A stretch of DNA of 62,797 nucleotides, filler included, from Collodictyon triciliatum (lineage: Eukaryota): the NCBI GenBank assembly GCA_043381765.1. It is 7 parts of 7 records of this genome, joined end to end, with 100 filler letters (N's around TTAATTAATTAA, not from the genome) between each part and the next. Parts side by side here need not be neighbours in the genome. Positions count along the whole stretch, not along the records: positions 9,075 to 18,509 come from JBHJMP010003014.1; positions 18,610 to 28,041 come from JBHJMP010003015.1; 5 more parts are not named here. One strand, written 5' to 3'. The notes beneath the pieces were generated by a model. It was not told the DNA's origin and did not search any database. It worked only from the letters and a program-made list of their open reading frames with translations. The translations under genes and the position numbers were made by a program. Numbering within the stretch: the stretch's first letter is position 1; each line of letters starts with the position of its first letter. Below are positions 116 to 27,997 of this stretch, in pieces.

Positions 116-158
116 TCTATTCTTCGACATCAACTATACTGCGCATCTTCCACCCCAG

Positions 159-4000: not shown

Positions 4001-4753
4001 TTCAATGGAATAGTTGAGGATGATGGTGATGATTTACCCTCTCTGCTCTCTCAACTGTCCTCTGTCGAGTCCCTACTACTTGAAAAGCATAAAAAATCAG
4101 CTACGGAGTTGACAAACGTGAAAGTTCAATTGACGGAACTTCAAAACCAACTCAGAGAATGCCAAATGATTCGCCAGTCATTGCAAGAGAAAGTTTCCAC
4201 GCAAGAATTGCTAATCCGAAAGTTGGAGTCTGACCTGGCATCAGGTTTTAATGTTCTTGTTCTTGTTGTTCTTGTTGTTCTTCTCCTTTCTTATTTAGTT
4301 TCAAGTTATTAACATGCATATTTCCTTTGTAAAATTGTATTGCCGATGAAACTTCTAGGGTATATGGAGGCTAGTCGAAAAACTAGGAGTGCAATTATTC
4401 ATATTCAAGAGACCTCTTCCGTTCCAAGCGACAGCATCGAGCATACTCGTGTAATTGAAAGCGCTGCTCTGGAAGTGAACCAGGTTTTTGTTATGAGCTA
4501 CATCATTTTCCTTCAAACATTACCCATTGCAGCCATCTTTGCTCTTTTTGGTTTCCATCATCAATCTATTGGCTAGAGTGTGCAAGAAATGCCAAGGGAA
4601 AACAAGAATTCTATCCTCTCCATAATTACACAGCAGCGAGACCGATTCAAAACAAGAGTGGATGAGTTAGAAATGGTGTTGATTTATCTATGAAATATTT
4701 GTATGAATCTTATTGTTTTGGTTTTCTTCCATGCATTTCTTTTCTTTTCTTGC

Positions 4754-4851
<98 letters not shown>

Positions 4852-5886
4852 GATAATGATTCTCTAACTGTTGAAAACTTTTCTATATTAATAGACCGCT
4901 CGTTGTTTACTTTACTCGTTATACATAAACATGTCAGGAAAATCGAAAATTGAAGGACAATGTCGAGACACAGAAAACAGCATATACAAATTTACAAGCA
5001 GACAATGTAAAACTATACGAAAAAATTCGCTATCTCCAAAACTTCAACTCTCAGAAAGGCGGTGTAAGATTCATACCACCTCGAAAATCATCCATACTAT
5101 TTCATTTCTCATCATGTATAAATTTCCAACTGTCTCAAATTCTTTTCATAAGTAACAAATATGTAAATATATATGCCCGAATCTATATTCACATTATCCA
5201 TCAATCGAGGACTGACATGCTGTGTGTCTCATCCCTTTTTATTTGTGCAATTATCATTCCAGGATATCGAGAGCAATGACGATTCAGTAAATTCCAAGTA
5301 CCGAGCCCTTTACGAAGAAAGCATCCATCCTTTTGCTCAATTCAACAATAAGGTTCTTAAATTGAGTTTCGCCCACTTCACCAGCATAGACTTAATCAAC
5401 TTAGATTATACCCTCCAATACTTTTCCTTCATCTGTGAACTGAGCATATGTTTTTGCTCTCCATTTTCCTTATTTTTGTGTGCACTCCCGCGTTTATGTC
5501 TCATACCATCTTCGTTCAAAAACTAAATCTTCATAATTAATTTTTTGTTATTTTTTTAAGAAAAAAAAGAAAAAATAATGCATTTTTGTCTTCTGGAATG
5601 GCTTAGTCAGCAATTAATTGACTAACCAGCCTCGGTCTATCCCTGCATGTCCATAAATTCTTCTGATGCACAATTCTCTGTGTAGGAGAAACAGCAACGA
5701 TATCAGCAACTCAATCTCGCAGAGCGCATCATCCTACACACATCCACCTATCTGCTCGGCCACAAGCGAACGCGCATATTTGTCTTTTGCTATATCTTTG
5801 TGCTCCACTTTCTCGTCTTTACAACCGTCTCAGCTTTTGCGAACTACACATGTCCGGTTTTCGAAGCACAGCAACCTGCTCTCTAA
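1019..5886 (+). CDS. CASP: Golgin CASP (CCAAT-displacement protein alternatively spliced product / COY1-like), multi-exon
   Basis: Spliced translation gives MEAITQAQRFWSGFDLNARRAQMD...SRKKLAESTK...LIKLYQDEIDGLTKRCK...LADAPDP (CUX1/CASP N-terminus) and coiled coils. It continues IITQQRDRFKTRVDELE, LQADNVKLYEKIRYLQ, YRALYEESIHPFAQF, and a C-terminal TM segment RIFVFCYIFVLHFLVF with the conserved Y/H. Stop TAA at 5884-5886. Confidence 0.9.
4757..4851. repeat. (ATT)n microsatellite in a CASP intron
   Basis: Perfect trinucleotide run. Confidence 0.95.
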
Positions 5887-6837
5887 ACGAGAAAGTAAAT
5901 AAAGCAACCACGAGGCAACCACAAGAATCCCTTTGTGGAACCTGGTGCATAATCTCATCTCTTTCGCACAACACACAAACCACCCACAAGCGAAGAACAA
6001 ACCAATTCCAAATAAATCGACTGGCCGAATACACGCACTGCCACCGAATTCACTTGTGGAATTTTACCGAAATAGCTGAAATTCATTGAACATCAGGTAA
6101 TCATATATTCCCGCACTGTGGCGACGTTCAACGGCTTCTTGATTTGTGCCACTCATTTTTTTCAGAAAAATATCCTTTTAAATACAGTTTCATATATTCC
6201 GTCGGCCGTCCAATTGTGGATATACGCATTAGGCACACTCACTGTTTCCTTTGGGCAATGCCTCCACAAAACCGCCTCCAAAGCCGAGGAGAGCCTTTTC
6301 TCATGTATAAAAAAGGGAATCTATCGGAAAATATCATAGATATCACCCAATAAGGTTCAGGTTCGAGAATCGATCGTGGTGGGGATTTATGAAGGAGAAA
6401 TGAGAACGAAAATATGGAAAACCAAGAAAAAATAAAAGAAGGAAAATAAAAGAAAAGAAACGAACAGAATTGCCAGCGAAAGAAAATGGCAATGAAGGCC
6501 GAAACAGGACGGATATTTGTCATTCACTGCAGAAGCGCGGTTGGATCGTCCAGCAAAAGTTTGCTTTCGCGGGGCAGAAATGACGATTTCTCCTGCATCG
6601 AAGCAGCACAAAGTCGCTGGCGTTTGTACGATTTCCTCACACAGGCCCCGTCCAGCACACAAATCCCCTGCGATAAGTCGTCACACCAGCGACAAGTCGC
6701 CACCTGCCTGGATGCCTCCCAAGTCTTAAGCCCACCTGCCAGAGGCAAAGAGAGAGAGAGCACGCTAGCTTCCTGCGAAACGAACTCTTCCGCAACCACT
6801 CACCGACTGTTCCTGGCCTCACCCCCACAGATCCACG

Positions 6838-8752
6838 ATGGCCTCGATCGGCTCCACAGCGCTGCCCGACGATTGGGAATCCTCCTTCTACAAACTCACT
6901 CCGCTTTCCGAAAACCAAGTCGAAGTCTTCATGGAGACGCGGACAGACAAAGTAAAAGCACCAGGAAAGAAAACAAGAAACAAAAAACGAACAAAAAAAA
7001 AAAAGCCGACTTATCTGTGCAAACACCCCCAGACGCATAAAGCATGATGTAACTGAAGTGCGTTCAAGCGAAGTTAACCTAACCCGATATACTAGCAAAT
7101 CACGCTTAAGTCCACTCAGCCGGGATTCCAAAAGACAATGCTGTCGGCTCCTGTTTTGATCAGCGGCGCCTCGCAAACGCGCTTGGTAAAGTCGCAGTCG
7201 CAGTCACAACCAAACTCCCTTTCTACTTCGCTCTCACACTCAGCAGAATACCGAACCGCACCCGTCCAGCCGCGCCCTTTTCCATCCCCTCCAAGCCGGG
7301 TTCTGAAGAAAGAGGCCAAGCCGGGCTGGCCCAGTGTGAGTCTCTCTTTTCTCTTTTCTCTTTTCTCTTTTCTCTTTTTACTCATTCTTGCACCCGCGGT
7401 CGACAAATTCATAAAGTTTGGGACGTTCGATCGGCTGCGACATTATAATGATAATAGCCATCGTGTCTAATTATGGTATGATGCCGCGGTCGGATACAGC
7501 TCGACCTCTCTAGAAACATGTTTGACTACCTGTCACCATCCAGACTTCTTGGGCCTCGGCCTGATTCGACGAAGACGATCGATACACATAACCTTCGGGT
7601 AAGTCTTTCATAGCAGTTTAACTTTTTGTGTCTTATCTCACGGCTGATATTTTACCACTCTTTTGGTCCTTTGCTCTGTCATTCTGTCCAACCACCTTGC
7701 AGAAATGGCAACATAGCACCGTTGATTTTAACAATATTTGCGTAATCCAGAATCCAATGCTGCTGTATAGAAAGAGAAGCAATATCAACAATGGTACGTA
7801 CATCATATCTTAAGCAGCGACCAAAAACAAAAAAAAAAGCAATATTCTAAAAGTCTCTTTCTGTCCTGGAATATATGAAGATGGCAGAGTTTCTCCGTCT
7901 ATACAGTCTTTTTATTGACTAATCTCATCCCATTCGACCGTATGAACCAACAGAGGAAGTCTACGAGGAAATATACCGCATTACATCCACAAAACATGTC
8001 CCACCCCCTCGGTCAAAATCCACGTCGTCTGGTATCACTGTTCAAAGGTCTCCGTCGCATGGAACAGTCTCATCTGCCAATTCAACACTTACACATTCTC
8101 AGATTCGTTCGATTTACCGAAAGAATACTCTCCTGAGTTCTCTTCAATCTGGTGATATGTTATTCATCGCCTAAATAGTAATTCCCTCGTTTTACACGAA
8201 TACATCAAGATTTTATCTGCTAACTTGGACGTGTATGACATTAGATGCAGGAAAGGAGTTTGCCTCCGCAGATGACGGTGCTGCTCGCCCTATTCCACAG
8301 AGTATATTTTGTAGCAATCATTTGAATTGCACTATTTTAATTTTTTGCATTTATTGTTCTAGTTTGTGCATCTATCCATATTCCAATTACTTAATACCAA
8401 CAAACCCACTCAGTTAAGAAAGGCTCTAAGAATGAGAAAAATTCACAGAAATCGGCACAAAAACAAGCAAAAATAGAAGAAGATGCCATTAAGAAACAAA
8501 TTAAAGGTATCGTTATTATAATCATCATTTCACGCTACGCTCTGCGCCAATCTTTGTGATTTTTCTCAGAACCAGTCTCTTCACCATGTCCTTTAGAGCA
8601 ATTCTCAAAATACGACTTGAACGGTGATGGTCATATCTCCCGAAGAGAAGCTCTTATCCTCCTTCGTAAAGTCGTGGAGAGTGCCATGGTAAGCCTTGCA
8701 CATTTTATCACCGATGCGGGCAACAGAACTCATTTTGAATCGAGTGTTTCTG
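6838..8752 (+). CDS. EF-hand Ca2+-binding protein with long Ser/Pro-rich N-terminus, multi-exon, 3' truncated by contig end
   Basis: GT-AG-bounded exons at about 6838-6951, 7110-7335, 7513-7598, 7954-8151 and others. The exon near 8598-8752 encodes FSKYDLNGDGHISRREA, a canonical EF-hand loop. An acceptor just before 6838 suggests the true start may lie further upstream. Confidence 0.6.
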
Positions 8753-8894
8753 AGTATATGCTTCTGTTTGTTTCTTTGTTAGATTTCTTGATTGGTTGGT
8801 TGGTTGGTTGGTTGGCTGTGTCCTCTCCTTTTTTTTTTCGCACTCTTTATTTAATTTTACCATGCGTGATTATGTTATCTTTTGTTTGTCAATA

Positions 8895-8930
<36 letters not shown>

Positions 8931-8974
8931 TTTTTCAACTAGAATTATCAGAAAAAAAAAAAAAAAAAGGATGA

Positions 8975-9074: not shown

Positions 9075-9180
9075 GAGTGAGAGAGTGAGAGAGTGAGAGA
9101 GTGAGAGAGTGAGAGAGTGAGAGAGTGAGAGAGTGAGAGAGTGAGAGAGTGAGAGAGTGAGAGAGTGAGAGAGTGAGAGA
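9075..9180. repeat. (GAGTGAGA)n microsatellite at contig edge
   Basis: Perfect octamer run immediately 3' of the WD40 receptor stop codon. Confidence 0.95.
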
Positions 9181-9183
9181 TTC

Positions 9184-12151
9184 TTAGAGAGAAATTGATG
9201 GACTTTCAGTAAAAATAATCATCTCTTTGTCTTTTTTTAAATCCTCCCATTTACCTCTTGTGTAGATAAAAATGGATGAATTCAAAACAGGGTCGAATAT
9301 AGGTTGCACCAGTCTCTCTACTTTTCCAAAGAAAGAAACGATGAACGCTGGGCCAGCTCTGTACAAAAAAACCACTGCAATCAACCCGTTAGACAATGTG
9401 ACTAGAGCCATAAGTAAATATTCGGCAAAAATGCTAAGGTCTGAATACCGAAACAAAAGACTTGTCATCAACGTGAAGTAAAGGACTGATATAGAGTAAA
9501 TTTGTGCCTCTTTGAGCACATTCGACATAAATGGGTTGAAGTAAATTGATAAGCCGATGCTTAATATCAAAATCCATGAACCAAAGTAAATTTGTAAAGA
9601 TGAAGAGAAAAGGACGCTTACAACAACAACAAGAAGCTTTTGCATCATAGTCACGATTTCCCAGTAATAACATCTTTCATTGTATCCATCCACCAAAAAT
9701 CGAAGCAAATTGTATGTATCGGATGTAGGATTTAGTAGTGATGACCTTTTGCGAAACATATAAGAGGCTAGAAGAAGTGGGCCACCAAAACAATACAGAA
9801 TCAGGTAAACCAATGAAAAAGATTTCCATATCAAATAAGTCGAGTCATTACACATAATTGACATATCAGCCTTCAAGTAACTTTCATCACCCAATCTCAC
9901 GCACCCAAATATATTTGATACCGATGATGTGATAGTTGGGTGAACAAAAATCAGCATAACCAGCATCGAAAATATAAATTCTTGATTCATCTTGTAGAGT
10001 GTTACATCTTTCATATCGATTTGGTTTGTCTTTAGTCTCCACACGGTCTTGAAAAATACCGCAAATGAGATTATGACCATCAAAACAAGTGGTGTGGCCA
10101 TTGCGCCTAATACTTTTTTGTATATATCCATGTCGAACTGACATTCCGTTGTATAATTGTCTATCGATAGGGAAAACGATAAAAAGCTCGGAATATTCAT
10201 CACGGAAACAATCGCCGAACTCCAGTTCACATCAAAGTTTGCAAGAAATGATAGAATTTGAAAATGTGTCGCTAGTGTCTTCAGAATTTGAATGTTGTCT
10301 GTTTTTGGTTGTCTTGACTGCTCTATCATATAAAAAACAAATGCTATAGGAAGGAGAATACTCAAAAAAACAAGAAATCCGTTGACCGTTCTTGATGTGC
10401 ATTCAATACAGAAATTTTCGCTTGCTTTTCCGTAACCTTGGTCACAAACACCACACAGTACTCCCTTGTAACCCTGTGCACATGTGATGTTGTTATCTCC
10501 TCCAATACAAGCTTCCTCATTTAGACATTTGTATGCGATATATTCTCCATTTGAGCTTGGAGCTTGCCAATATCCAGGATCGACTTTAAGCTTACTGCTT
10601 CCGTCACAATTAAATCCATAAGGGCAGTCCTTGCACTGTTTAGAACTTGATTCCAAGTAAGTTGAACGAAGACATAAACAGTCCTTAATCGTTGTTGACC
10701 CTGTTTTACCTCCATTCCACCCACTTCCACATGATATACATTCTGCTTGACCTGTTGCCGGGTTGTAAGTTCCAATGGGACATAATGGACATGATTCTTG
10801 ACCAGTGGATGGATTGTATGTACCAGCTGCACATGAAAGACATGCACTAACATTTGTAGAACCGGTTAATGGGTTGTATGTACCAGCTAGACATGAAATA
10901 CATGCATTGACACTTGTAGAACCATTTGATGGGTTGTATGTACCAGCTAGACATGAAATACATTCACGAATACCTTTCGAACCATTTTTAGGATTGTATG
11001 TACCAGTTGGGCATAAAGAACAAGATAAGGTTTCTTCAGCACTATAGCTCCCAGATGGGCATAATTGACAAGACTGTGAATCTGAATCATAAAACACGCC
11101 AGCAGCAGCACAAAGTCCCCAAATTTTGATTGTTCTATCATCACTCCCAGAAACAATTTTAGAACCATCAGGAGTGACAGTAACGCTGTAAACCCAATCA
11201 GTATGACTAGTCAATGTGCGAATCAGAGTTCCATCAGAAAGATTCCAAACTTTTATTGTATTATCACCACCTCCAGAAACAATCTTCGAACCACCAGGAG
11301 TAACAGCAACACAGCGAACCCATTTGGTATGACCAGTCAGTGTGCGAATCAAAGCTCCATTAGATAGGTTCCAGATTTTGATTGTATTATCAATTCCAAA
11401 AAAAGAATCATGACCGCCAGATATAATTTTTGAGCCATCAGGAGTAACAGCAACACTGACAATATAACTTGTATCATTCAATGTGCGAGTCAAAGTTCCA
11501 TCAGAAAGATTCCAAATTTTGATTGTATTGTCCCCGCTTCCAGAAACAATTTTTAAACCATCAGGAGTAACAGCAACACTGTTGACATACTTTGTATCAT
11601 TCAATGTGCGAGTCAAAGTTCCATTAGAAAGATTCCAAATTTTTATTGTATTATCCCAACTTCCAGAAACAATTTTTAAACCATCAGGAGTAACAGCAAC
11701 ACTTACAATATAACTTGTATCATTCAATGTGCGGATCAAAGTTCCATCAGAAAGATTCCAAATTTTGATTGTATTATCCCAACTTCCAGAAACAATTTTT
11801 AAACCATCAGGAGTAACAGCAACACTGTTGACATAATTTGTATCATTAAATGTGCGGATCAAAGTTCCATCAGAAAGATTCCAAATTTTGATTGTATTGT
11901 CCCAACTACCTGAAACAATTTTTAAACCATCGGGAGTAACAGCTACACTGCGAACCCAGTTGGTATGACCAGTTAGTGTGCGAATCAAACTATCTTTCCC
12001 TTCAACAAGGCGCAATTGGCAGTGGAGCATCAATCCTAACAATGTATTAATTAAAATTCTATGTGCTATAAAGTCAATGAAATTTAAACAATATGAATAA
12101 TGTCTCACCCAACAGCAACACAGCTGCAAAAGACTTTGAATGTAACCTCAT
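9184..12151 (-). CDS. Putative surface receptor: signal peptide + 7 WD40 repeats + Cys-rich GCC2/GCC3 (ephrin-receptor-like) repeats + multi-pass TM domain
   Basis: ATG at 12151 (MRLHSKSFAAVLLL), a 43-nt GT-AG intron at 12108-12066, then the long ORF. It has seven WD40 units (SVAVTPDGxKIVSGSxDNTIKIWNL), CxxCxAGTYNP repeats, a CAQGYKGVLCGVC motif and about 8-9 hydrophobic segments. Stop at 9184. Confidence 0.85.
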
Positions 12152-13773
12152 TCTAAATTAATGTGACATGTGTTTAAAATATTAAAATAAAATTTTATGG
12201 ATTTATCCTGTACCCAATAAAATTTTCATTTTTAAGATATTGTATGATTTCACCACTCAATTATCATTTATTGATTCAAAAATACATAACAATAGACCAT
12301 CTGCAGAACTTCAATAAATTTCATATAAAAATCTCTATAAAACACTCTTATTTATATCAATTAAAGCTTGAATAGTTCATTTGATTGTGTAGTGACTTAA
12401 TCAGTTGGTTCATGAAAATTATTAAAAAGTGGAATACAATCATCTTTTCAAAATAAATCGAAATGGAATGATATATTGATGAAGACTTTTAATATGGTTA
12501 ATTCATGTTTGGTAATATTTTTACATAGTCATTTTCTACCAATTATATGTAGATTTTGATGCAGTACTTAAAGAAAAATCTTAATGAAGTATTAGATAAA
12601 TCATGTCTTAAAAAACGAATAATTCAATACACAGCATACGAAAAACAATATGAAATATAAGACTCGTGCAAAATAGCCTTATTATGTATAGGAAATGAGA
12701 ATAAATCAATAAATATAGTTTAAAATTTAAGTTTAAGTGATGGACAATAAATACTTCAGTTTGAGGCAAATAGATTTGGTTTATCTTAGTTATAAATCAA
12801 TAAATTGTAATAACCAAAATAGCCGAAGATACCACAAAAGGACTTTCCAATCAATGATATATACTAAAAATCAAAATATTATACCGCCCCTATTTATTAA
12901 AATAATCAATTAGTTATCATTCAAAAATTTACAGGATTTCGAAACAATACAATATGATAAAATAGGTACGTGGTATTTGTATCGGAAGTTATGTGTATAT
13001 TAAAATTATGAATAAATCATGTTATCAAGGAAACCACGTCGAATATTTGCTACCATTATGCCAACAAACTTCGTAAATAATATTGAAAAAATAAATAAAT
13101 AATAAAGAGATTGGTTGATTAATATGTATCCGTTATAACAGCTTCTTAATTTACAAAACATTCTTATTTATTTTATTAATCGAGAAAAGTAAAATATATC
13201 AAATAAAACTTATCTCTTGTTTTCTATGCAATCCAAAATTGGATGAGCGGATGATATAATGTTTAAAAGTAAGAAGTTTTTAATGACATATTTTAATAAT
13301 TAATCGATTGGCATTTTGATTAGTCATAAAAGATGTATGGTAATATCATTAAAATTGAAGCGATGCAAGTTAATTAATTTAAAAGCAAGTATAATCGATT
13401 CCTCATTTGATGAATTAATACCAAAATATAATCTCATAAAATATTCATTACCAGAACCAGTGGTATCTTTTGAAAAATTACTTTACTTATTGAACATCTA
13501 TATTAATATTCACTATAAGAACTATGAATATCAATATATTCCAATAAAATTAATCAGGATATTTTTAATTATTCACTCTCACAATAGGCATATTTATCGA
13601 CATATACTGATTCGAATCGTTTTTTATTTCCGTAAAATATTAATGTATAACATTAATCAGATAATCATAACTGTAAAAATATTCATATTATTAGATAACT
13701 TATATTTGTTCAAAGATAAAAATAAATACGGTACACTGGACTACATCGAATAAATATCATAGGAGCAAACAAA

Positions 13774-14311
13774 GGGGGCAGACGTTGTAGTCCAGCTGGC
13801 ATGGGACAGCGTCTGACCTGCGCGAACGTGGTTTGAACTCCACAGGGTGTACGGTGTGTGTGATTCCGGCCCTGTATCACGCATTCCCTGAGCCCTCCTC
13901 CTGTGCCCTCAGTTATACCCAATCCAGGGCGGCCGGGGTGTGCTTCGCCGGACAACGGAGCACACCCCACAACATTCGAAGAAAATGACGTCACCAGAAG
14001 AGTGCTTCCTTGAGGAAGGAATGAGATGCCATATCTACGCCGAGCTTCGACCCCACAAAAAGACACCCCGCATAATTGTCCCCCCTTTATTCCACGTCTG
14101 CCCTTCTTGGAAAATCCCCCATGCCCCCCAGACACCCCTTTGTAACACCCAGGCCACAGGCCAAACCGCAGGATGCAATCCTGAGTACCGACTACTTCTC
14201 CGCCACCCGGCCGACAAGTAGCGCCCATACAAACGATGGCCAGCGAACCAAAGCCAACATCCCCACGGTCCTGCACAAAAATCGAAAGAAGAATAAAAAA
14301 AAATAATAATT
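13774..14311 (+). mobile_element. Full-length tRNA-derived SINE-like retroposon (~540 nt)
   Basis: 12-bp direct repeat GGAGCAAACAAA at 13762-13773 and 14312-14323. Pol III A-box-like TAGTCCAGCTGG at 13788-13799 and B-box-like GGTTTGAACTCC at 13830-13841. GC-rich body and A-rich tail. The homologous site on the other contig (about 23170-23215) is empty. Confidence 0.75.
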
Positions 14312-17223
14312 GGAGCAAACAAAAAGATTTTCTTTAGAACACGAATTTCGATTATCTCTGATTGAAATTATAATTATGATTTAATATAACTTAACAAATT
14401 GTCTTTGAGTCAACTATATTATTGATTATATATAAAAAATGTTGACCCTTGAAGTATAACCGTCTATGTACAAAATAGGGGTTCAAGCGAAGAATCACAT
14501 CCTATTATTCGGTAAAGTTTTATTAACAACCGATTGCAGTATTAAAAAAAGAAGTTGTGTGAGTATTGTATATCATCTCTAATATATTTTATGATTCACA
14601 ACCAGTTTCAGCATTATTTGCATTTATTTTCCTGATTCATATCAATTATTATCTCATTCTCTATCATAAGTCCCAAATATAGTGATTTTTAATTGACTTA
14701 TCTTTTAAAGGACATATTTTTCACAATAACTATAGTAATATAATAAATTGAACTAAAATCAACTATATTAATGAAAATAAATTCACTCTAATAAAATAGT
14801 GATTTATTATTTTGACTATTGATAGTGATATATTTCATGTAAATCCTATATTTCATTGAGAATTTGCAGACTATGTACTATAAAGATTCTTTGGAACTCT
14901 GAATAGAATAAGTCTATTACACTAAGGTCAGTACTAAAATTTTGATACAAATTATAATTATTGCCATGAGAAAGGCAACAAAAGTCTGAATATTAATAAT
15001 TTACTAGCACAATCGTTTCAAAGGTAATTCATAATTGAAAGTTTAGTCATTGAGGTATTTTACATGGCATCAATACAGATATAATGTTCCTAGTTGAAAA
15101 TTGGTAAATAATACATGATTAATTAAATTGAAATCATATTCAAATCTAGTACTCAGCCATATTTTGACCAAATATAATAAACTGAACAATATCAGACTTA
15201 ATAATATGAAATAATCATAGAAGTCATAATGTATGTGGTGGATTAAATAAATAAATCATTAAGAAATCAACATAAATATAAGAGACATATTTAGATACAT
15301 AAAAAGGATTTTTTTAATATACGTGAATGATGATAATCGAAAAAAATAAAAGGGCGTGAACCGTCTACTATATCCTTGGTTAGTCGGGGCACCGCAAAAA
15401 CGAATATCGGTTTGCTTTTTTATTACCTCTGGTTGATTTGGAATTGAAATTGGAAGGGGGAGGGTGGGTTTGTTGGATTCGATAAATCGACATCTATATA
15501 ACCAAGAGAGAAAATTAAACTAATTTAGATGATTTAACAACGATTAATTATCATATTGGTTTCTTCATTAAGCGATAAACCTACAAATCATTTCACTTGG
15601 AGAAACGAACAAGGTCTAGTAAGGGGAGGGGTATGGGCGTGAAGCTGTGGACAAATGATTGCAGGTCGGTCAAGGGGAGGGATGGTGTTTCATTCAGCGG
15701 CATCTGATTTTTAGCGGGGATATGTTAAGTGTTTTTTGATTTGGATATTAGAATGGTTCACATGTTAGTTAGTCGGTTTTTTAAAATTCACATTTGATGA
15801 AAAAGTGTATCTATTCATTTAATTAAAATGGAATTTAAAATACGGATAACAAGATTCTGCAGATAACAAAAACTCTGGTAGATACGTAGTTTAATGATTT
15901 TTTTTGTAGATTTAGTATTCATGAGGCGATATGAAATACGATTATTGAAAAATAAACGACGTTACATGACGATTCTGTAGGCAGACCATTCATCTTCATT
16001 AAACTTCATTATAAAATATATAGCTGAGACAATTATATTGTAAATATTAAAATATTGATTCCATGTTTTCATACTATATTAAATCTATCAACTGAATAAT
16101 AAAATAACTAGGATGGCCAGACTCTGATGATAATTCTTAATTCTATAGATTTTTGTTGTATCATTATTAGTAATAGTTTTACTACTGAAATATTTTTAAT
16201 TAAAATATTCGACTTTATACATGCTGTATTTTATATGTTAAATAGGCAATTTTTTCAAATTAAATAAAGCTTCCTTACCGCAAAAAAGGATATATGACTT
16301 TTGATTACAAAAATTTACAACGAATATTATTTTATTTATTTTTTGGTCTGAATGACTGGACAAAGACATACTTACTTCCACAACACAACACAACACCCCC
16401 ACTGTGCGTTCTTAGACCTTTACTTCAGACCATCGGGAAAACTAGGAGCCGCCGATCCACCACCCTCCCCCTCCTCCAAGTAGTAGATCGAAACAGTTCC
16501 CTTTCCCACGGATTTTGTCTTTTGTCCCTTCCAATTGCAACTGTATCTGAGTTTTGCCCATGACTTTAGTTTGAACATTTTCTAATTCAAGATGAAAAAT
16601 TAATGCTTAATATGATATATTGAATACAATAATGCGAGTTTTCAGCTAGTCCATGAAGTTATCCGATTGAACCATTTATCAAAACGAGACCTAAATAAAG
16701 AATGAAGTTTGATTGATAATTTGCTAAAAATGAGGCTTTATACACATGTACTTAAAATGTGCGTAATTGTTTATCTATCGTTGAATATCAAACATGTGGC
16801 GAATTTCCTGTCGTATAAATTTAAAATTTTTCGTACTTGTCAGATATGAAGAGAGTTAGAGGGTAAAATTAGACAAGAATCATACTTTTTTACCATTAGA
16901 ATCTTGGCCAATCTGGCCCAAAGATTGCACTATTCTTGTAATGCCCTCAAAGTTTTAATTATGAGTTTCTTTAATTATTATAAAAATTAGATTAATGGTA
17001 CTTGAAACCTTGAGATAAATAAATTTCGATGTTATGAATTGGTTTGGCCAACTTACTGTATGACTTGTTTATTACCAAAAAATGAGAGCTCCAGAGTCCC
17101 TTGTACGATGAAATGGAGTGACAGATAGACCCTTTCTGAAAGTACATCCAGTGCTATTGTAAATGGTATTTTTGAGTTCATCCTGATAAATAATCAAAAT
17201 ATTTAAAGAGTTGAAATTTTTGT

Positions 17224-17407
17224 CCTGGTCTTCCTTATGCAAGCATAAGACTCAGACTACAGGCCAAACTGCAGGATGCAATTCCTGATTACCGACTACT
17301 TCTATGCCACCCGACCACCAAGTAGCGTCCATGCAAACGATGGCTAGCAAACCAAAGCCAAAGTGTCCACCGTCCTGCACAAAATGGAATGGAAGAATAA
17401 AAAATAG
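17224..17407 (+). mobile_element. 5'-truncated non-LTR retroposon copy sharing the SINE 3' tail
   Basis: Matches 14147-14300 and ends GAAGAATAAAAAA. Occupies the same position within the repeat as the 20078-20261 insertion. Its TSD is degenerate. Confidence 0.75.
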
Positions 17408-18509
17408 TCTAAAATGTTGTATTAATTACATTAATATTTTTTATTTCCATGAAACCCCCTCTAATATCGTAGAAATTAACTCATGATTGATTTTTCCAAA
17501 TTGGCTATTTTTAATTCATACATTATTCAATATCGTATAAGCCTTATGAAAAGTAAAGGTAAAAATTAACTAGGATAGCAAATTATCAGAATCTACCGTT
17601 TATTTGGAATCATAAAAATACATGTAGAGAAATTCCCAAATATGTGTCATACATGAATCTGGTTGATTAAAGTATGATTTTGAGATTCAAAGAGTCAAGT
17701 TGAACGGATGACGGTTTTCAGACTATTAGAATGGATAATCCATTATTTATGTTTCCAAAACTTTGAGTAATATTATAGTTGCTAATTAAAAATAAAGGTA
17801 TAATTCTTCGGAGTCTGCAAAAATAATTTACAATATTATTGCCGGTTCCGCTTATACCTATCCTGAGGAAGTTATGCTGGATTGCCGACTGTTATATGTT
17901 ATCTGTTGAATACTAGACATACATAAGTCAAGGGTATTGGATCTGTAGTCTTGTAGAATGAACGAATGTAAGGAATCTGATAGTAAAGGAGGACAGGATA
18001 GTCGCGTGGACTTTCGCCACAAGGGTATTTGGCCTCCGATCAAATTGAAGTCAGAGTCCTTGGTAGTCGCACCTCTTAAAGGTTGCAACTATTCTCGACC
18101 CTATCGGTTGCATATTGATGAGCCATAAATCCAGATTCCATACGCTACTGGCCTGAATCCCTTAACTGACACATGTCACTGCTTTCAACCAAGATGCAAC
18201 AACTACGGCGTCCTGAAAATTTCTTAAACCCCCCTTCATTCACTTGTATGGAATAAAAGAAAATATGTGTAAACGAGGGATTTATTTTTTTCCACCATTA
18301 TGCGAATCCCATGAAAAAGGCCGAGTTGAGAAGAGAAAAGCAAACAGATAAAAAACCAACCTGAAAGCAAATCCAATATCTAAGAGACCTTCTTAAAGTC
18401 TACGTCTGAAGGATCTCCATCGAAGTGATCTTACTGTGGGCAGAGCAACCAGAGATTCAATCGCCCCGAAGCTCCTAGAAAGCATCACAAACTGCATGAG
18501 ATTGGAATA

Positions 18510-18609
18510 NNNNNNNNNNNNNNNNNNNNNNNNNNNNNNNNNNNNNNNNNNNNTTAATTAATTAANNNNNNNNNNNNNNNNNNNNNNNNNNNNNNNNNNN
18601 NNNNNNNNN
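18510..18609. other. Artificial contig linker
   Basis: N44-TTAATTAATTAA-N44. Confidence 0.98.
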
Positions 18610-18972
18610 CAAAGATGAGTCCCTTCAGCAAAACTTTATGTGATTGGCTCTAGTCTTGCCCAGCATAATCCCTGGGTTATGTTGCGCACGAACCGACCAA
18701 AACTCAAAATTCAAAACACATGAAAACTTATTTACATATCCAAATAAGAATAAATTAAACTATTCCTCCTTCCTGCGGAGGTTTTAGGGCCCTCATCATT
18801 ACGAATATTCGAAAGCCAAGGAGAGCTGGCATCTTCCGGATTTACGAGCCTTTCTGTTGCAAAGCATTGTTGGACACGCATCCACACTATATGAAATACC
18901 CCTTGATTCTATTTTTTTTGAAGCTTTAGCTGATTTGTCATTTTGCTGTTACTAAGAATTTTAAGTGAATTA

Positions 18973-21900
18973 TATTCCAATCTCATGCAGTTTGTGATGC
19001 TTTCTAGGAGCTTCGGGGCGATTGAATCTCTGGTTGCTCTGCCCGCAGTAAGATCACTTCGATGGAGATCCTTCAAACGTAGACTTTAAGAAGGTCTCTT
19101 AGATATTGGATTTGCTTTTAGGTTGGTTTTTTTGATCTGTTTGCTTTTCTCTTCTCAACTCGGCCTTTATCATGGGATTCGCCTATCGGTGGAAAAAAAG
19201 AAATCCCTCGTTTATACATATTTTCCTTTATTCGATACAAGTGAATGAAGGGGTTTTTTAAAAATTTTTATAGGACGGCGTAGTTGTTGCATCTTGGTTG
19301 AAAGCAGTGGCACGTGTCGGTTAAGGGGTTCAGGCCAGCAGCGTATGGAATCTGGATTTGTGGCTTATCAATATGCAACCGATAGGGTCGAGAATAGTTG
19401 CAACCTTTAAGAGGTGCGATTGCAAAGGACTCTGACTTCAATTTGATCGGAGGCCAAATTCTCCCTGGGGCGAAAGTGCACGCGACTATCCTGCCCTCCT
19501 TTCCTATCAGATTTCTTATATTCTTTCATTCTATTCGACTACAAATCAAATACCCTTGACTTATGTATGTCTAGTATTCAACGGATAACATATAACAGCC
19601 GGTAAACCAGCTTAACTTCTTCAGCATAGGCATTAGCGGAACCGGCAAGAATATTGTAAATTATTTTTTGCAGACTCCGAAGAAATATACCTTTATTTTT
19701 TAATTAGAAACTACAGTATTACTCTAAATTTTGGAAATATAAGTAATGAATTATCCATTCTAATAGTCTGAAGACCGTCGTCCATTCAACTTGACTCCTT
19801 GAATCTCAAAATCATACTTTAATCAACCAGATTCATGACACAATTTTGGGAAAATCTCTACATGTATTTTTATTACTAAATAAACGCTAGATTCTGATAC
19901 TTTGCTATCCTTGTTAATTTTTACCTGTACTTTTCATAAGGCGTAGATGATATTTAATAATGTATGAATTAAAAATAGCCAAGTTGGATAAATCAATCAT
20001 GAGTTAATTTCATCGATATTAGAGGGGGTTTCATTGAAACAAAAAAATCTATACGTAATTAATACAAAATTTTCGACTATTTTTTTTATTCTTCCATTCC
20101 ATTTTGTGCAGGACGGTGGAGATGTTGGCTTTGGTTCGCTAGCAATCGTTTGAATGGACGCTACTTGGTGGCCGGGTGGCGGGAAGTAGTCGGTATTCAG
20201 GAATTGCATCCTGCATTTTGGCCTGTAGCCTGGGTCTTGTGCTTGGATAAGGAAGACCAGGACAAAATTTTCGACAATTTAAATGTTTTGATTTTTTTTC
20301 AGGATGAACTCAAAAAACCATTTATAATAGCACTTCACGAACTTTCAGAAAGGGCCCATCTGTAATTCCATTTCATCGTACAAGGAACTCTGGAGCTCAT
20401 TTTTTTTGGCGATAAACAAGTCATACAGTAGGTTGACCAAGCCGATTCATAGCATCAAAAGGAAATTTATTTATTTCAAGGTTTCAAGTTTCATGATTCT
20501 AATTTTTATTATAATTAAAGAAACACATAATTAAAACTTTGAGGGCATTACAAACAATTGTGCAATCTTTGGGCCAGATTGACCAAAATTCTGATACTAA
20601 AAAAGCATGATTCTTGTCTAATTTTACCTTCTAATTCTCATCATAATTGAAAAGCACGAAAAATTTAAAATTTATATGACAGAAAATTCGTCACATGCTT
20701 GATATTGAACGATAGAAAAACCAATTACTCAAATATTTTGAGTACATGTGTGTAAAGCCTAATTTTCAGCAGATCATCAATCAAACTTCATTCTCAATTT
20801 AGGTCTCTTCTTCGATAAATGGTTCAATCTGATAACTTCATGGACTAGCTGAAAAATCGCATTACTTTATTCAATCTACCATATTAAGCATTAATTATTC
20901 ATCTTCAATTAGAAAATGTTCAAACTAAAGTCATGGGCAAAACTCAGATACAGTTGAAAATGGAAGGGACGAAAGACAAAATCCGTGGGAAAGGGAACTG
21001 TTTCGATCTACTACTTGGAGGAGGGGGGAGGGGTGGTGGATCGGCGGCTCCTAGTTTTTCTGAAGGTCTGAAGTAAAGGTCTAAGAACGTACAGTGGGGG
21101 TGTTGGGTTGTGTTGTGTGTGGAAGTAAGTATATCTTTGTCCAGTCATTCATGACCAAAAAATAAATAAAATAATAATATTCGTTGTAAATTTTTGTAAT
21201 CAAAAGTCATGTATCCTTTTTTGTGGTAAGAAGGTTTTATTTTATTTGAAAACGTTGCCTATTTAACATATAAAATACAGCATGCATAAAGTCGAAAAGC
21301 TTATAATTAAAAATATTTCAGTTGTAAAACCATTACTAATGATGATAGAACAAAAATCTATAAAATTAAGAATTATCATCGGAGTCTGTCCATGCTAGTT
21401 ATTTCATTATTCAGTTGATAGATTTAATCCTAACATAAAATACATGGAATCAATATTGTATTACTTACAATAAATACAATAATTCAGCTATATATTCGCT
21501 AATTAATTTTAATCGAGATGAATTGTCTGTCTAAAGCATCTGCATCGCTATGTCGTTGGTATTTGTAATATTCTTATTACGTATCGCCTTGTGAATACTA
21601 AATCTACAAAAAAATCTTTAAATTACGTATCTACTAGAAAGTTTCTGTTATCTGCAGAATCTTTGTATTCGTATTTTATATTACGTCTTAATTAAATCAA
21701 TAGATACAATTTTGCATCAAATGTGAATTAAAAACCAACTAATCAACATATGAACCATTATTATATCCAAATCGAAAAACACATACCATATCCCCGCTAG
21801 AAACCAGTTTGCCGCTGAATGATACACCACCCCTCCCCTTGACCGTCCTGCAATCTTTTGTCCACAGCTTCACACCTACACCCCTCACCTTACTAGACCT

Positions 21901-23330
21901 TGTTCGTTTCTCCAAGTGAAATGATTTGTAGGTTGACCGCTCAATAAAGAAATCTATATAATAGCTAATCGTTGTTACGTCATCTAAATTAGTTCAATTT
22001 TATCCCTTGGTTATATAGATGTCGATTTATCAAATCCAAAAAAATCCACCCCTCCCCCTTCCAATTCCAAACCAATCAGAGGTAATGAAAAGGTATTTGT
22101 GATATGTATTTTTATGTTCCCCTGACTAACCAAGGATATGGTAGACGGTTCACGCCCCTTTTTTTGTTTTACGATTACCATTGTTCAAATATATTAAAAA
22201 ATCCTTTTTATGCATACAAATTATATTTTCGTATATTTGTGTTGGTTTATATAACGATTTTTTAATTTATTCAACACATACAGTATGGCTTCTATGGTTG
22301 TTTCATATCGATGATTCTATCATTCTAATGAGTCCTTGATATTGTTCGGTTTATTCCTATTTGGTCAAAATATGGCCGAATACAAGTATTAATGCATATG
22401 CAATTTTATTGATAATCTACATTTTTCATTTTTTTATCAAATATTCGAATACAAGGATTCAATTTTTCAGCATTGGTAGAAATTTAAACCAATTGAATAG
22501 TTAAACTTTCAGTTCTAAAATATCTCTTGAAATGATTGTGCTTGTAAATTGAATAGTATCAATACCTTTTATTTTTAATCTTGTATCATGAGTTTTAGCT
22601 TCTTATAAACACTGATTTTATCTTGGGTTCCAAAGAAAATTAAATATCACATGGTTTAGAACTCTTCAACGAAATATAATATTTACATAAAACATATCGC
22701 TATTAATAGTCAAAAGAATATAGTCAAATTTTTATCGATATAACTTATGAGTGCTTTGGATTTGATTTAATGAATAATGTGAATATGGAAACTGACATAC
22801 GATTGGATTTAAGATAGTTGGTTGATTAGAACCCACAATTTAGAGCCTCCTTATAGAGAATGATATAATCACGATAAAACAGATACATGCAAATCTATAG
22901 TGAAACTGATCGCTAATCACTGAATCTCTTAGAGATGATACCCAGCTCTCACAAAACATCATATTTTGGTGTTTAAATCAGTTGTTAATGTAATTTTACC
23001 GAATATTAGGATGTGACTCATCGCTTGGCCATTTCCATACACATATGGGCGTACTTCATGAGTAAGCATAGTTCTAAAACAATTAGTAATACAGCTAACT
23101 GAAGGATGATTTCATATACTCAATTTTAGACTTTTAAATCCAGAACAAATTTTATCGGAGGCTATGTTCAAGGAAGATATCATTTTTCTCATATAATAAT
23201 TATTCGAAATAGTCAAGCAAACAGGGTTTCTTTAAAATTTAATTCAATATACATTATCTAATAACATGGCTGTTTTAACCTCTGGTTGCTTGATTAATTA
23301 CTGTGTGATTATATGGTTAGAACTAAGATG
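18973..23330. repeat. Copy B of the >=5 kb dispersed repeat
   Basis: Reverse complement of about 13600-18509 minus the SINE. 18610-18972 is probably further element sequence absent from the truncated copy A. Confidence 0.9.
20078..20261 (-). mobile_element. 5'-truncated non-LTR retroposon (184 nt) with 14-bp TSD
   Basis: TSD ACAAAATTTTCGAC at 20064-20077 and 20262-20275. A-rich tail on the minus strand. The 3' ~160 nt are shared with the SINE. Confidence 0.85.
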
Positions 23331-23860
23331 ATTCAAATAAATGGTTTTTTCTTATAACCTTTTTCATTATGATGATGAATAACAATTTATACGAATGCAA
23401 CAACCAAGAACATTTTTTATATAATTTGGAACTGACATTTATAATTGTAGGAATGCCCTAAAGTTCTAGCCGTCACAATTATTATATGCAAATAGTTCCA
23501 TTCTCTTTTAATTATTTTAGTCATTAATCAACTCATATGAAGCACAAACCCATGGTACTCTTATCTATCAAAATTCATTTGTATTTACAATCATACATTT
23601 TAGCTTATCGGTGAATATCTCGAGATGCTGAATAATAGATTATTTATCTGGTTTTTTTGAATTTGAAATATGAGAGAGGATTAAAATATTGAATCATGAT
23701 ATATGAGTGTACGAAAAAAACAAGTGGTTTACGGATATGAGATTGACTTATTACAAGGAAAGTTTAAAATAAAAATAAGAAAGTTAATGTAAAAAAACCT
23801 ACAAAAATATGAAAATAAATTTGTACACTAAAAAATTCATTCATTTTTCATAAGCAATAT

Positions 23861-23914
23861 TTTTTTTATTCTTCCTTTCAATTTTGTGCAGGATGGTGAA
23901 GATGTTGGCTTTGG
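23861..23914 (-). mobile_element. Severely 5'-truncated retroposon (54 nt) with 18-bp TSD
   Basis: TSD ATTTTTCATAAGCAATAT at 23843-23860 and 23915-23932. The insert is the last ~50 nt of the same tail plus an A-tract. Confidence 0.85.
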
Positions 23915-24336
23915 ATTTTTCATAAGCAATATATTTTATTGATTTATTTTTATAAATAATACATCTCTTTCATAATATCAACATTATATCACATGAAAAA
24001 TCTATAATATTTGATAAATAGACACAAAATTAAGCTTCCATTAGAGAATTCCTTTATTTAATACTGAATATTCTTGAAATCATGTTTGCTGAATATTCCT
24101 ATGTTTGGTGAATAAAATATCAGTAGAACTGATGATATTCAACTTACAGATAAATTTATGTAATAGAACAGAAATGTACTCGCCAGACGAAAAAAGAACT
24201 GATTTCCGACGCGATAATATCTTCGAATCGAGAATAATATCACTCAAAATTCCTGCAACGTGCGTTTCATAATTCAATCTGTGATAAATAAATTTGATTA
24301 ATTAGTCTTAATTTTAAATATATACCCAGAAATTCG

Positions 24337-27300
24337 ATGCTTTTGGTTGCCTTCATTGCCATCGTTTTCATTGTTTCATCGGCATCCTCAATTCATCCAC
24401 GTCAAAGGTATAGTTTGATTTATGAATATTTATAAAATACACTTTCAACTCAAATAAGAAAAACAGATGCCAGTATTCAAGAGATGAGTTGCTTTCCATG
24501 AAAGTCGAAGATGCATTCCAAATTCTGTTGAGCTACTACGATGAGACATGCCCTTTGTTAAAAGAGAGTGAAGATAGCTTTACAGGGTTGATGAATGGCT
24601 GGAAAGATGGAGATTACTCGCTAGGAAATGGACATGGTGCTGAATGGAATTATGGAAGAAAATTAACATCTAGTAAGGCCGATTTCTACAAAGAAATTCA
24701 TCCGCCAATACGAAGTGGAAACAGAGAACGGGGGTTGGAGAATAAAGAGAACCGAAGTGTGGCCGATGGAAATCCTGGGACCCAATACGAACTGCTTGTC
24801 CAACTTTACGATTCACTTGGTGGCAACAATTGGTTTCGGAACACTGGATGGAAGAATGAAACTATCCCGATTTGTGATTGGTATGGAATATCGTGTCATC
24901 AGAACTGCTCGGATGAAGACTATAAGGTAATTCCTTGAAATAATAATCTCTTTTGATTTCATTTTTAACATATTTTCCTTTATATTTATAGAGAAACACA
25001 TGCCCTATCGTGGAAATCAGGATGTCAGAAAACAATCTTAACGGTAACATTGAAGCTGCCTCGGCGATTTTTGAGAAGCTCCAATTATTAGATTCCTTGG
25101 ACATGAGCTTCAATTTCATTTACGGAAATCTTCCAGACTTTAATCTCCCAAGCATTACGTATTTGAACGTCTATGTTAATCAAATGACAGGAACGATTCC
25201 AGACTTTCAAGGAATGCCGAATATTGAACATCTTGATATTAATGGGAATGAATTGGAAGGAACAATACCAGATTTTTCTGAAATTCAGTCGCTAAAGAAA
25301 TTATACATTGGTGAAAGTGAAAAAATTACAGGTATCAAGTAACATCCAATATGATTTATTCTGAATTCTAATGATTTTTCCATTTCAGGAACTCTTCCTG
25401 ACTTCTCAGCGTTGCCCAATGTTCAGATTCTTGGAATTTATAGCTGCAAAGTTCATGGTTTGTTTTTTCTATTTTATTAAAAGTGAAGGTGTACTAGCGT
25501 AACTTATTTTTATTTCAGGCACAGTTCCAAACTTTAATGGAATTCCGAATGTTGAAATAATATATCTTGACAACAATCAATTAGATGGTAAGTTTTAACT
25601 ATTATTTCATGTATTATTATTAAAAAAAACTAACTTTACATTACAGGGACCATTCCAAACTTCAGTGGGATTCCAAATGTTGAAATAATTTCTCTTGGCA
25701 ACAACCAATTGACTGGTAATTATTGTTATAATTTCATTGTTGATATAAAAAACTGACTAAATTTATATAACAGGAACAGTTCCAAACTTCAGTGAAATCC
25801 AAAGTGTTGAAAAAATTTATCTAAACGACAATCAATTAACTGGTAAGTTTTGTGATAATTTTATGTATTATTTATAAAAATCTGACTAACTTTACATTAC
25901 AGGAACGGTTCCAAACTTCAGTGATATTCCAAAAGTTGAAAGAATTTATCTTTCCAGTAATCAATTGACGGGTATTTTTATAGTTATTCACATATACCTG
26001 GAAAAAAAAACTAACTTATATTATAGGAACGGTTCCAAACTTCAGTGAAATTCCAAAAGTTGAAAGAATTGGTATTTCTAGCAATCAGTTAATTAGTAAG
26101 TTTTATGACAATTTTATGTATTTTTGATGAAAAACTAACTTTTTATTATAGGAACGGTTCCAAACTTCAGCAAAATTGCAATAGTTGAAATTATTTTTCT
26201 CGGCAATAATCAATTAAATGGTATAGTTTTATGAATATTTCATGCATAAATGAAAAACTGACCTTTTATTACAGGAACCGTTCCAAACTTCATTGGGATT
26301 TCTAATCTCGAAAAAATTTACCTTGACAGAAACAGATTGAATGGTGATTTCTAATTATTTTCCCTTTTTTTTGATTTTCATGTTTCCTTCAATTTTAATG
26401 AGTAATTTTAGGCACAATCCCAAACTTCTCAAATTTGAGAAAACTGGAGATTTTTTCTGTTTATGAGAATCAACTGGAAGGAGAGGTTCCAGATTTCAAA
26501 GGTTGCGACAAAGTCAAGGAAATATTGTTGTTTCGAAATAAGTTGTCAGGTACATTGCCGATGTTCAATCTTAATAATCTGACAAGACTTGATGTGAGCG
26601 AAAACCAAATCAGTGGCTCTATCCCAGAAAATTGGATATTGCCATCAATTAAATACATCGACTTGTCTTGGAACAAAATGAACGGTACAGTCCCAACCTA
26701 TTTCCAGGAATTACCAGAACTGAAATCACTCGTTTTGTCTAACAACCGATTCTCTGGAAGCATGCCTGATTTATTCTGGAATCTGCCGAATCTAGTCACT
26801 ATTGATTTAAGAAACAACTCGTTTGCAGGTGATGTCAGGTTTTTTATTGTTCCAGCTTCAGGCAAATACGATTACTTTTATGAAAACCTGTTGCTTGATG
26901 ATAACCAAATCTATGGAGTATTGAATTATAGGGTTTTTGACTTCGTCCTCAGCATAAAAACATTAAGCCTTAAAAACAACAACATCACTTATCTTGATGA
27001 ACTTACAAATTTATTGAGATGGACCTCCCTTGACCTCACTGGAAATCCGATTGTTGGGAGCATTCCTGAATCATACATAGGATTTTCAAAGCTTGAGTAT
27101 CTGGGATTGAATGAAACATCTATGAATCACGGAACAGCTAATTTTCTTCCTGATTTCATGAATTTCACAACATCTTTCAATATTCAAGATGAATCAAAAC
27201 GCTACCTTTGTCCTTCCATTATTTCGAAATCTGGTCTGATTGAATTAGATGTTGACTTGAATCCAGAATACTATGACTTTGAATTTTGTAAATGTTTGCC

Positions 27301-27997
27301 TGGATATTTCGGCTTTGGAAATAATTGCGTTCAATGCCCAAGAGGATGTGATTGCCTTGATGGAACATCCTTGAAATTCTGTCATGCTTCACCAAGTATT
27401 ACCTCTGTGAAATCAATACTGCCGTGTCCACGTCGCGAGTCATGTGATGTATCGATTCCAGAGAAAAATTCGAATTCAAGTACCATGGTCGAAATCATAG
27501 ACATGTGTCAGGAAGGCTATGAAAGTTATGCCTGCTCAAAATGTCGGAATGGACACGGAAATCAAGGGAGGTCGTGTGTGAAATGCGATAAAGGAACAAT
27601 TTATTCAACCCTGATTCTTGGTTCGATTGGATTTTTTATGTTCATTTGCTATCTGTATTTCACAGAGACATCAAAATCAGGTAAATGTCACTAAATTATT
27701 TTCACTTTGATTCTTCCCATATTAATCAGAATATTTCATTCAGCGAAACTAAGGATAATAATGTTCCACATGCAAACACTGTCGATTGTGTCTAGTGGAC
27801 TCGTTCTTTCAGAAGATGCAAACAGCTTTATTGATGTTTCATCGTCAATTGGTTCAATCCAATTTCCCAACCTTTCCTGTGTCCTTGGAGTAGACGATGT
27901 GTTTGCTTCTCTGATGTTCAGTTTTGCAAGAATACCAATCTTTATCATAGTTGGCTCAGCCACGTACTATTTTGGATATGGGCACAAGCAGAACAAA
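24337..27997 (+). CDS. Putative LRR surface receptor: signal peptide + LRRNT cap + plant-type extracellular LRRs + Cys-rich region + TM segments; 3' truncated by contig end
   Basis: Signal-like MLLVAFIAIVFIVSSASS; cap LYDSLGGNNWFRNTGW...ICDWYGISC; LxxLxLxxNxLxGTIP repeats; CKCLPGYFG...CQEGYESYACSKC; then TM helices and KLRIIMFHMQTLS. A possible extra in-frame upstream exon starts at 24174. Confidence 0.88.
25389..26343 (+). repeat. Tandem array of eight 69-nt exons (one 23-aa LRR each) with related ~55-60 nt phase-1 introns
   Basis: Exons at 25389-25457, 25519-25587, 25647-25715, 25774-25842, 25903-25971, 26027-26095, 26152-26220 and 26275-26343. Most introns share AAAA(A)CT(A/G)AC branch motifs and ttacag/ttatag ends. 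Confidence 0.92.

Follow-up and report, generated by a model that had tools for sequence, protein, structure and literature searches.

Two Candidate Receptor Genes of a Large Surface-Protein Family Adjoin Copies of an Apparently Non-coding Repeat in Collodictyon triciliatum

Introduction

WD40 arrays of high internal conservation are described in fungal NOD-like receptors (NLRs) of the HET-E/HNWD type (PMC1805685, PMC2873952). In Tetrahymena, a large, fast-evolving family of leucine-rich repeat (LRR) genes is built from arrays of 90-bp exons that each encode one repeat and have phase-2 introns between them; the family is said to be overrepresented in pericentromeric and subtelomeric regions that are rich in repeats (PMC6564038). 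The plant receptor kinase CRINKLY4, which is among the work found in the literature under the phrase "extracellular WD40" and its variants, has an extracellular propeller, which is described as being of WD40 type, with a cysteine-rich domain after it (bioRxiv 10.1101/2020.08.10.245050). Fungal transient receptor potential (TRP)-like proteins of Pfam family PF06011 include Flc1 and Pkd2p of fission yeast (PMC9600462, PMC6727746). We compare with them two genes of the protist Collodictyon triciliatum (assembly GCA_043381765.1), one with a WD40 and one with an LRR ectodomain, each downstream of a copy of the same multi-kilobase repeat. Both are in a 62,797-nt stretch of DNA, hereafter the window, made of seven contigs joined by N blocks, each with the TTAATTAATTAA spacer.

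The original prediction for this window proposed a modular receptor system in which two variable ectodomains on one membrane chassis are associated with a common upstream cassette. We find that the modular chassis is an ancient feature of an entire protein family and that the common cassette is unsupported. The account that we favor, with a probability of roughly 0.58, is that of a passive repeat lying beside two members of a large family. The two genes are on different contigs, as predicted (contig 2, positions 9075–18509 of the window, 9435 nt; contig 3, 18610–28041, 9432 nt). Complete contigs 2 to 6 are sorted by size, from 9435 down to 9423 nt, and adjacency within the window therefore reflects size only.

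Two Genes with Different Ectodomains

The WD40 receptor gene occupies 9184–12151 of contig 2 on the minus strand, as delimited by its open reading frame (ORF) and by reading of the sequence. Translation starts at the ATG at 12151 in a 43-nt exon 1 (12109–12151) that encodes a signal peptide, MRLHSKSFAAVLLL, read from the sequence once the first intron was placed. A 73-nt GT..AG intron (12036–12108) separates it from a single long exon 2 that ends with a stop at 9184. In the encoded protein, Pfam recognizes seven WD40 stretches (expectation value [E] 2.6e-67) and four Ephrin_rec_like (PF07699) stretches (5.3e-20). The seven-blade WD40 array (11113–11994, minus strand) consists of 123-nt units, of which blades 2–5 are alike, with 83–93% DNA identity, and it holds 11 N-x-S/T sequons in 300 residues. 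Next is a Cys-rich stalk (10399–11103, minus strand) in which Pfam places Ephrin_rec_like repeats (10648–11103) and a DUF7630-like (PF24633) segment (10399–10530), the latter with a score of 23.1 bits, under the 27-bit cut-off. In a profile search of Protein Data Bank (PDB) sequences, the stalk matches the Cys-rich domain of EphA2 (2.6e-5). The protein ends in a predicted multi-pass membrane tail (9217–10392, minus strand), supported by 8418 homologous cluster representatives and by an AlphaFold2 model with ∼9–10 long helices (predicted local distance difference test [pLDDT] 86.2; predicted template modeling score [pTM] 0.83).

Because the WD40 array follows a signal peptide, precedes a disulfide-rich stalk with no membrane helix in between, and carries 11 sequons, we infer that it faces the outside of the cell. 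Its closest relatives are bacterial and fungal multi-WD40 proteins with NACHT, NB-ARC, kinase, or TIR domains, at 41–53% identity in most rows of the search result. The locus is unusual above all in that a WD40 array of the type found in NLRs and other signal transduction ATPases with numerous domains (STAND) serves as an ectodomain. As in HET-E/HNWD proteins, the WD40 units are near-identical and differ mainly at a few loop and top-face positions. Unlike in those proteins, the array comes after a signal peptide, bears sequons, and continues into a disulfide-rich stalk, and a nucleoside triphosphatase (NTPase) domain is absent among the 25 of 46 Pfam matches listed for the gene. The WD40 gene thus resembles a HET-E/NWD-type NLR in repeat architecture only. 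The likeness to CRINKLY4 is one of domain order by description, and that protein differs in being a single-pass kinase receptor.

The LRR receptor gene lies on the plus strand of contig 3 (24337–28041; ORF, Pfam, and sequence reading) and is incomplete, running off the contig end at 28041. Exon 1 (24337–24407) begins with the ATG at 24337 and encodes a signal peptide that starts with MLLVAFIAIVFIV, again read from the sequence, and is followed by an intron at 24408–24466. An LRRNT_2-like cap at 24780–24896 precedes many small exons, including eight exons of 69 nt (25389–26343, plus strand), each of which encodes one 23-residue LRR with the consensus GTVPNFSxIPxVExIYLxxNQLx. Phase-1 introns of ∼55–60 nt separate them, giving the array a 127-nt period. 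The gene shares with Tetrahymena LRR genes the layout of one LRR per exon, introns of a single phase, and tandem duplication of exon plus intron, and differs from them in its 69-nt exons, phase-1 introns, and standard genetic code. Near the contig end, a Cys-rich juxtamembrane region, a first membrane helix, an intron (27681–27743), and a further membrane exon (together 27287–27997, plus strand) represent the portion of the common module present on contig 3. Only the first ∼84 aa of the membrane tail are included. The DUF7630 score of this gene is 17.3 bits.

Both ectodomains are internal duplication arrays and both vary where ligands would bind, yet diversifying selection is not supported, with ratios of nonsynonymous to synonymous differences per site (pN/pS) below 1 in both. 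Among WD40 blades 2–5, differences map to the segment that follows the first strand (NDT-x-Y-[VI]-x versus GHT-x-W-V-x) and to the residue preceding the conserved Asp, and pN is smaller than pS in six of six pairs; blades 1, 6, and 7 are out of register and were excluded from this comparison. In the LRR array, variation is concentrated at the x positions of the unit consensus, divergence is similar in exons (0.255) and introns (0.28), and the pooled pN/pS is 0.41 (seven exons compared). The prediction of recently duplicated arrays thus stands as regards duplication, and less so as regards recency, as LRR units have diverged by ∼25%. Likewise, variation at exposed positions was correctly recognized and its reading as a sign of diversifying recognition was not borne out.

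A Common Stalk and Membrane Module and Its Family

The two genes share a module of Cys-rich stalk and membrane domain, as had been noticed, and the relationship is real but distant. A window-only tblastn search aligns the two proteins with 22% identity over 246–263 aa (E 8e-5 to 1e-3) and finds no family member on the other five contigs. We compared the LRR gene with a family profile (A2) of 30 sequences, comprising the WD40 protein of the window and 29 relatives. The Cys-rich region matches with 98.3% probability (E 2.2e-14), and the first membrane exon matches in colinear order with 57.5% probability (E 1e-4). Judged by these sequence comparisons, the WD40 and LRR genes are anciently diverged paralogues within a surface-protein family that is very large and present across eukaryotes.

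The size of the family was estimated by full HMMER search, without a word index, using residues 500–987 of the WD40 protein as query. At E ≤ 1e-3 the search yields 8418 cluster representatives; 2440 of them reach E ≤ 1e-10 and 128 reach E ≤ 1e-30, with a best value of 1e-104. Matches are nearly always C-terminal, in proteins of 273–6169 aa, and the tails are colinear over 400–450 aa at 25–35% identity, reaching 61% with one metagenome fragment. Named sources are protist transcriptomes, among them those of Rigifila ramosa and Clastostelium recurvatum, and metagenomes. According to Pfam scans, stalk and membrane domain follow each other in relatives as they do in the WD40 gene, behind ectodomains that in 22 relatives scanned whole span TIG, FG-GAP, Chlam_PMP, beta-helix, and PQQ propeller types. 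TIG, FG-GAP, and a PQQ-type propeller were seen in a scan of six relatives, and TIG occurs in seven of nine relatives of ∼1000 aa. Across the 30 profile members, Pfam reports DUF7630 in 14, Ephrin_rec_like in 9, PF06011 in 5, TIG in 4, Chlam_PMP in 3, and Beta_helix in 2. Among the 150 best representatives, three have an LRR region like that of the window and none has a WD40 domain like that of the window. Different ectodomains on one chassis, as predicted, are therefore found here, as a trait of a pan-eukaryotic family with 8418 representatives and not one peculiar to this locus.

A typical member would open with a signal peptide and go on with an interchangeable ectodomain, a stalk of Ephrin-receptor-like and DUF7630 type that is rich in disulfides, and a membrane domain with ∼9–10 helices. 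The ectodomain would bind something extracellular, and the membrane domain, which may be distantly related to fungal TRP-like (PF06011) proteins, would relay a signal, possibly as a channel. As in PF06011 proteins, a multi-pass membrane domain lies behind a lumenal or extracellular N-terminal part, and PF06011 is matched by five of the 30 profile members (best E 3.4e-5) and is annotated on 12–15% of members of the nearest protein Atlas clusters, which are unnamed. In contrast to those proteins, the WD40 protein itself has no PF06011 match at E ≤ 0.01, and its channel activity is conjectural. The membrane tail has no match in a Foldseek search against PDB at E ≤ 1e-3, a wide fold search with VIA gives a best Z of only 7.7, to generic helices, and in the comparison of the family profile with PDB sequences the Cys-rich part of EphA2 is the sole match, with none in the membrane tail. 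Any relationship of the tail to the fungal TRP-like proteins of PF06011 is a distant one at best. Our literature search found no paper that names DUF7630 or PF24633 and, among the best-ranked matches listed, none that describes this family.

A eukaryotic family of this size, in which exchangeable ectodomains sit on a single multi-pass and possibly channel-like membrane domain, may give protists a major means of sensing what is around them. In addition, the predicted position outside the cell of a WD40 array of the type known from intracellular STAND/NLR sensors suggests that sensing modules pass between immune-like receptors inside cells and those at the surface.

Within the family, eight sequences from metagenome contigs (P0024, P0032, P0037, P0040, P0049, P0054, P0076, and P0094) form a tight subfamily of proteins of ∼1000 aa. 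Their layout comprises ∼300 unassigned residues, one TIG, one Ephrin_rec_like, and the same membrane tail, and at source they are nameless or annotated as "hypothetical protein."

A Repeat Upstream of Both Genes

As predicted, the same repeat is upstream of the two genes in the same orientation relative to each. BLASTN aligns 14484–18509 of contig 2 (copy A, minus strand) with the reverse complement of 18973–23027 of contig 3 (copy B, plus strand) over 4124 columns at 83.4% identity, and the copies are also visible as 20 inverted blocks of 78–98% identity. Copy A is cut by the end of contig 2, and contig 3 extends for 363 nt beyond copy B (18610–18972) with sequence that has no counterpart on contig 2. 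The assembled length is 4.0 kb on contig 2 and at most 4.4 kb on contig 3, and the proposed size of ∼5 kb was a guess.

Identity between the copies is uneven. In a global alignment, it is 98% in the 100 columns beside the end of contig 2, averages ∼90% across a 3.1-kb core (15400–18509 on contig 2; 75–96% per 100 columns), and beyond the core drops patchily to 55–75% as far as 14484. The span 15350–18509 named in the original prediction captures the ∼90% core and misses this weaker homology. The last conserved block, TTTACCGAATAWTAGGATGTGAYTC, stands at the end of the homology in both copies (14492–14516 and 22995–23019), its two occurrences in the window, and the sequences beyond it are unrelated. 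Homology thus stops short of the WD40 ATG by 2.3 kb and of the LRR ATG by 1.3 kb; a fading of similarity 1.0–1.5 kb before each ATG had been predicted, which is accurate for the LRR gene and not for the WD40 gene. The end of contig 2 falls within the repeat at the 98% identity peak, consistent with an assembly that broke at a repeat.

The repeat looks non-coding and neutrally evolving. One of its frames has 92 stop codons over 1473 codons, and the ten longest of its 17 ORFs of at least 55 aa have no Pfam match better than E 0.057. The copies differ by 583 mismatches, with 290 transitions to 293 transversions; codon-phase bias reaches p < 0.05 in only one of 27 windows along the repeat, and the length of most indels is not divisible by three. 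Scans found no Rfam family at gathering score (one chance-level match, E 0.84), no tRNA, and, within the assembled part, no terminal inverted or direct repeats, contig 2 ending inside the repeat. We also considered a hidden coding gene in the repeat, which is ruled out by the 92 stops, the lack of codon periodicity, and the lack of Pfam matches.

A shorter sequence is dispersed in and around the repeat. This ∼160-nt sub-motif occurs four times in the window (at 14248, 17352, 20102, and 23882) versus zero times expected by chance. Sequence comparison places one copy inside each repeat copy (17246–17404, minus strand; 20080–20245, plus strand) and one between repeat and gene on each contig (14144–14302, minus strand; 23858–23914, plus strand, a 57-nt fragment), all in the orientation of the gene. 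In related metagenome contigs, bins with the sub-motif have summed depths of 30–120 versus few to ∼20 elsewhere, the raised depth being evident at both contig 3 copies, and the 5′ edge of the sub-motif shows loose ends with differing flanks, as is also evident for the 57-nt fragment. Raised depth and differing flanks mark the sub-motif as an independent short repeat that is dispersed and, in these contigs, seemingly present in many copies. It has no Rfam match and folds no better than shuffled sequences (z −0.79). The sub-motif starts with a pyrimidine tract and CAG, resembling a splice acceptor. Directly after the contig 2 copy nearer the gene is a GC-rich stretch of ∼400 nt (13760–14140) that contributes to a 207-aa frame (13710–14333, minus strand) that matches nothing in Pfam and lacks a counterpart elsewhere in the window.

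The abundance of the repeat was gauged outside the window. Five metagenome runs contain a small share (0.05–0.08) of the window sequence, no RNA run being among the runs listed, and four of them were compared at 80% likeness. Short metagenome contigs, ∼90% alike and with no long pieces among them, cover all 30 bins of contig 3. A scan of metagenome contigs with a 22-mer of the repeat gave two loci, both chance matches of 23 nt, and a scan of genome contigs with a 24-mer gave no matches.

Relation of the Repeat to the Genes

The genes are far older than the repeat copies, given ∼22% protein identity between the former versus ∼10% DNA divergence between the latter. Because of the age of the genes and because homology stops before both ATGs, the genes were neither duplicated together with the repeat nor carried as its cargo. 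Under the account that we favor, the upstream DNA would be a separate, far younger, non-coding repeat of multi-kilobase size that arose as a segmental or chromosome-end duplication or is a decayed non-autonomous transposon. The genes would adjoin it since fast-evolving members of the family occupy repeat-rich DNA, or simply by chance. It is unlikely that the repeat serves the genes as a cassette, and the locus itself would then be ordinary, with two genes of a large family adjoining a repeat.

Several observations weigh against a purely passive repeat. The repeat and the family members are on the same two of the seven contigs and in matching orientation. The chance of this co-occurrence is ∼1/21 and is halved by orientation to ∼1/40, an after-the-fact calculation that assumes independence and uses the counts seen here. 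A value this low makes some positional link plausible, such as the location of family members in repeat-rich, perhaps chromosome-end, DNA. Identity falls gradually toward the genes, from 98% to 55%, unlike the uniform divergence expected of two transposon copies; such outward decay would fit a repeat-rich, perhaps chromosome-end, location. Lastly, the median summed depth of repeat bins is ∼2.3, 0.9, 1.2, and 2.0 times that of gene bins in the four runs, which hints at few copies, although depth is not copy number and the measure is weak. The presence of two copies among seven size-sorted contigs favors many copies.

A high number of copies is the starting point for an alternative that we regard as unlikely but worth weighing, in which the repeat is a dispersed transposon, non-autonomous or decayed, with random neighbors, and its proximity to receptor genes is coincidental. 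Finding two copies in so small and arbitrary a set of contigs, one of them broken by a contig end, is consistent with such an element, as are the conserved terminal block followed by abrupt loss of homology in both copies and the smaller dispersed repeat nested within. Conversely, the ten longest ORFs of the repeat contain no detected remnant of a transposase or reverse transcriptase, the assembled part has no terminal repeats, identity is graded and not uniform, and by the same weak measure the depth of the repeat is ∼1–2 times that of the gene region, compared to 5–15 times for the sub-motif.

Features at the ends of the contigs raise a different scenario, to which we assign a low probability: contigs 2 and 3 would be direct neighbors in the genome, with the repeat copies as the arms of a single inverted repeat flanked by divergent receptor genes and 18610–18972 as its central loop. 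Contig 2 terminates exactly with a 72-nt block identical to contig 3, identity peaks (98%) at what would be the inner ends, the start of contig 3 has 363 unmatched bases, and a depth of ∼1–2 times that of the gene fits two copies, again weakly. However, genomic neighbors would need to be of near-equal length (9435 and 9432 nt, within 3 nt) to be sorted side by side, and no strand change is observed among the metagenome joints listed.

The repeat might instead be a functional upstream platform linked to the family, be it a promoter or leader in common, a region akin to an expression site, or a tract whose ectopic recombination shuffles ectodomains, a reading that we find improbable. Its appeal derives from the same orientation to both genes, the co-occurrence of repeat and family on two of seven contigs, the extra copy of the sub-motif between repeat and ATG on both contigs in the orientation of the gene, and ectodomains made of units that readily recombine. 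But the copies evolve neutrally with no conserved islands, their distance to the ATG varies (2.3 versus 1.3 kb), and contigs 2 and 3 have no homology nearer the genes than the sub-motif copies at 14144–14302 and 23858–23914, themselves 2.0 and 0.4 kb away from the ATGs. The sample is also limited to two genes. The cassette of the original prediction, non-coding, neutral, and ending well before either start codon, is thus unsupported. Its most novel form is highly doubtful, namely, a family-associated platform in fixed orientation, acting as a control region or as a tract of recombination homology, that lets one protist genome swap or switch NLR-type WD40 and plant-type LRR ectodomains on one membrane chassis. 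The proposal of a large mobile element with the receptor genes as cargo, for which adjacency and common orientation are the only points in favor, is close to refuted because homology stops 1.3–2.3 kb before the genes and does not resume, the genes are ∼22% identical versus ∼90% for the repeat, and no mobility genes are seen in the repeat.

Other Features of the Window

The remaining contigs are at 1–8974 (contig 1), 28142–37571 (contig 4), 37672–47095 (contig 5), 47196–56618 (contig 6), and 56719–62797 (contig 7). The window has a GC content of 0.28–0.47, short GT..AG introns, and long frames that are open under the standard code, all of which indicate eukaryotic DNA. Three tandem copies of the telomere motif TTAGGG are absent from the window. 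Contig 2 opens with (GAGTGAGA)13 (9075–9180), and low-complexity tracts of (A6–8 G)n or poly-T are located at or near contig ends (36493–36873, 37672–38052, 47608–47809, 56420–56618, and 62599–62797); the tracts seem to be break points of the assembly. Contigs 1 and 7 share, in opposite orientation and with 99% identity, a stretch of 99 nt (4753–4851 and 59246–59349) that aligns in three registers 3–4 nt apart and is probably a short tandem repeat.

Two adjoining frames on contig 6, one of 1864 aa (48165–53759, minus strand) and one of 414 aa (54111–55355), have no Pfam family at E ≤ 0.001. Contig 5 has exons of an SMC3 cohesin gene (42810–45532, minus strand). The best match of its N-terminal fragment is a protein of Vermistella antarctica, at 85% identity, followed by those of Cavostelium and Protostelium (Amoebozoa).

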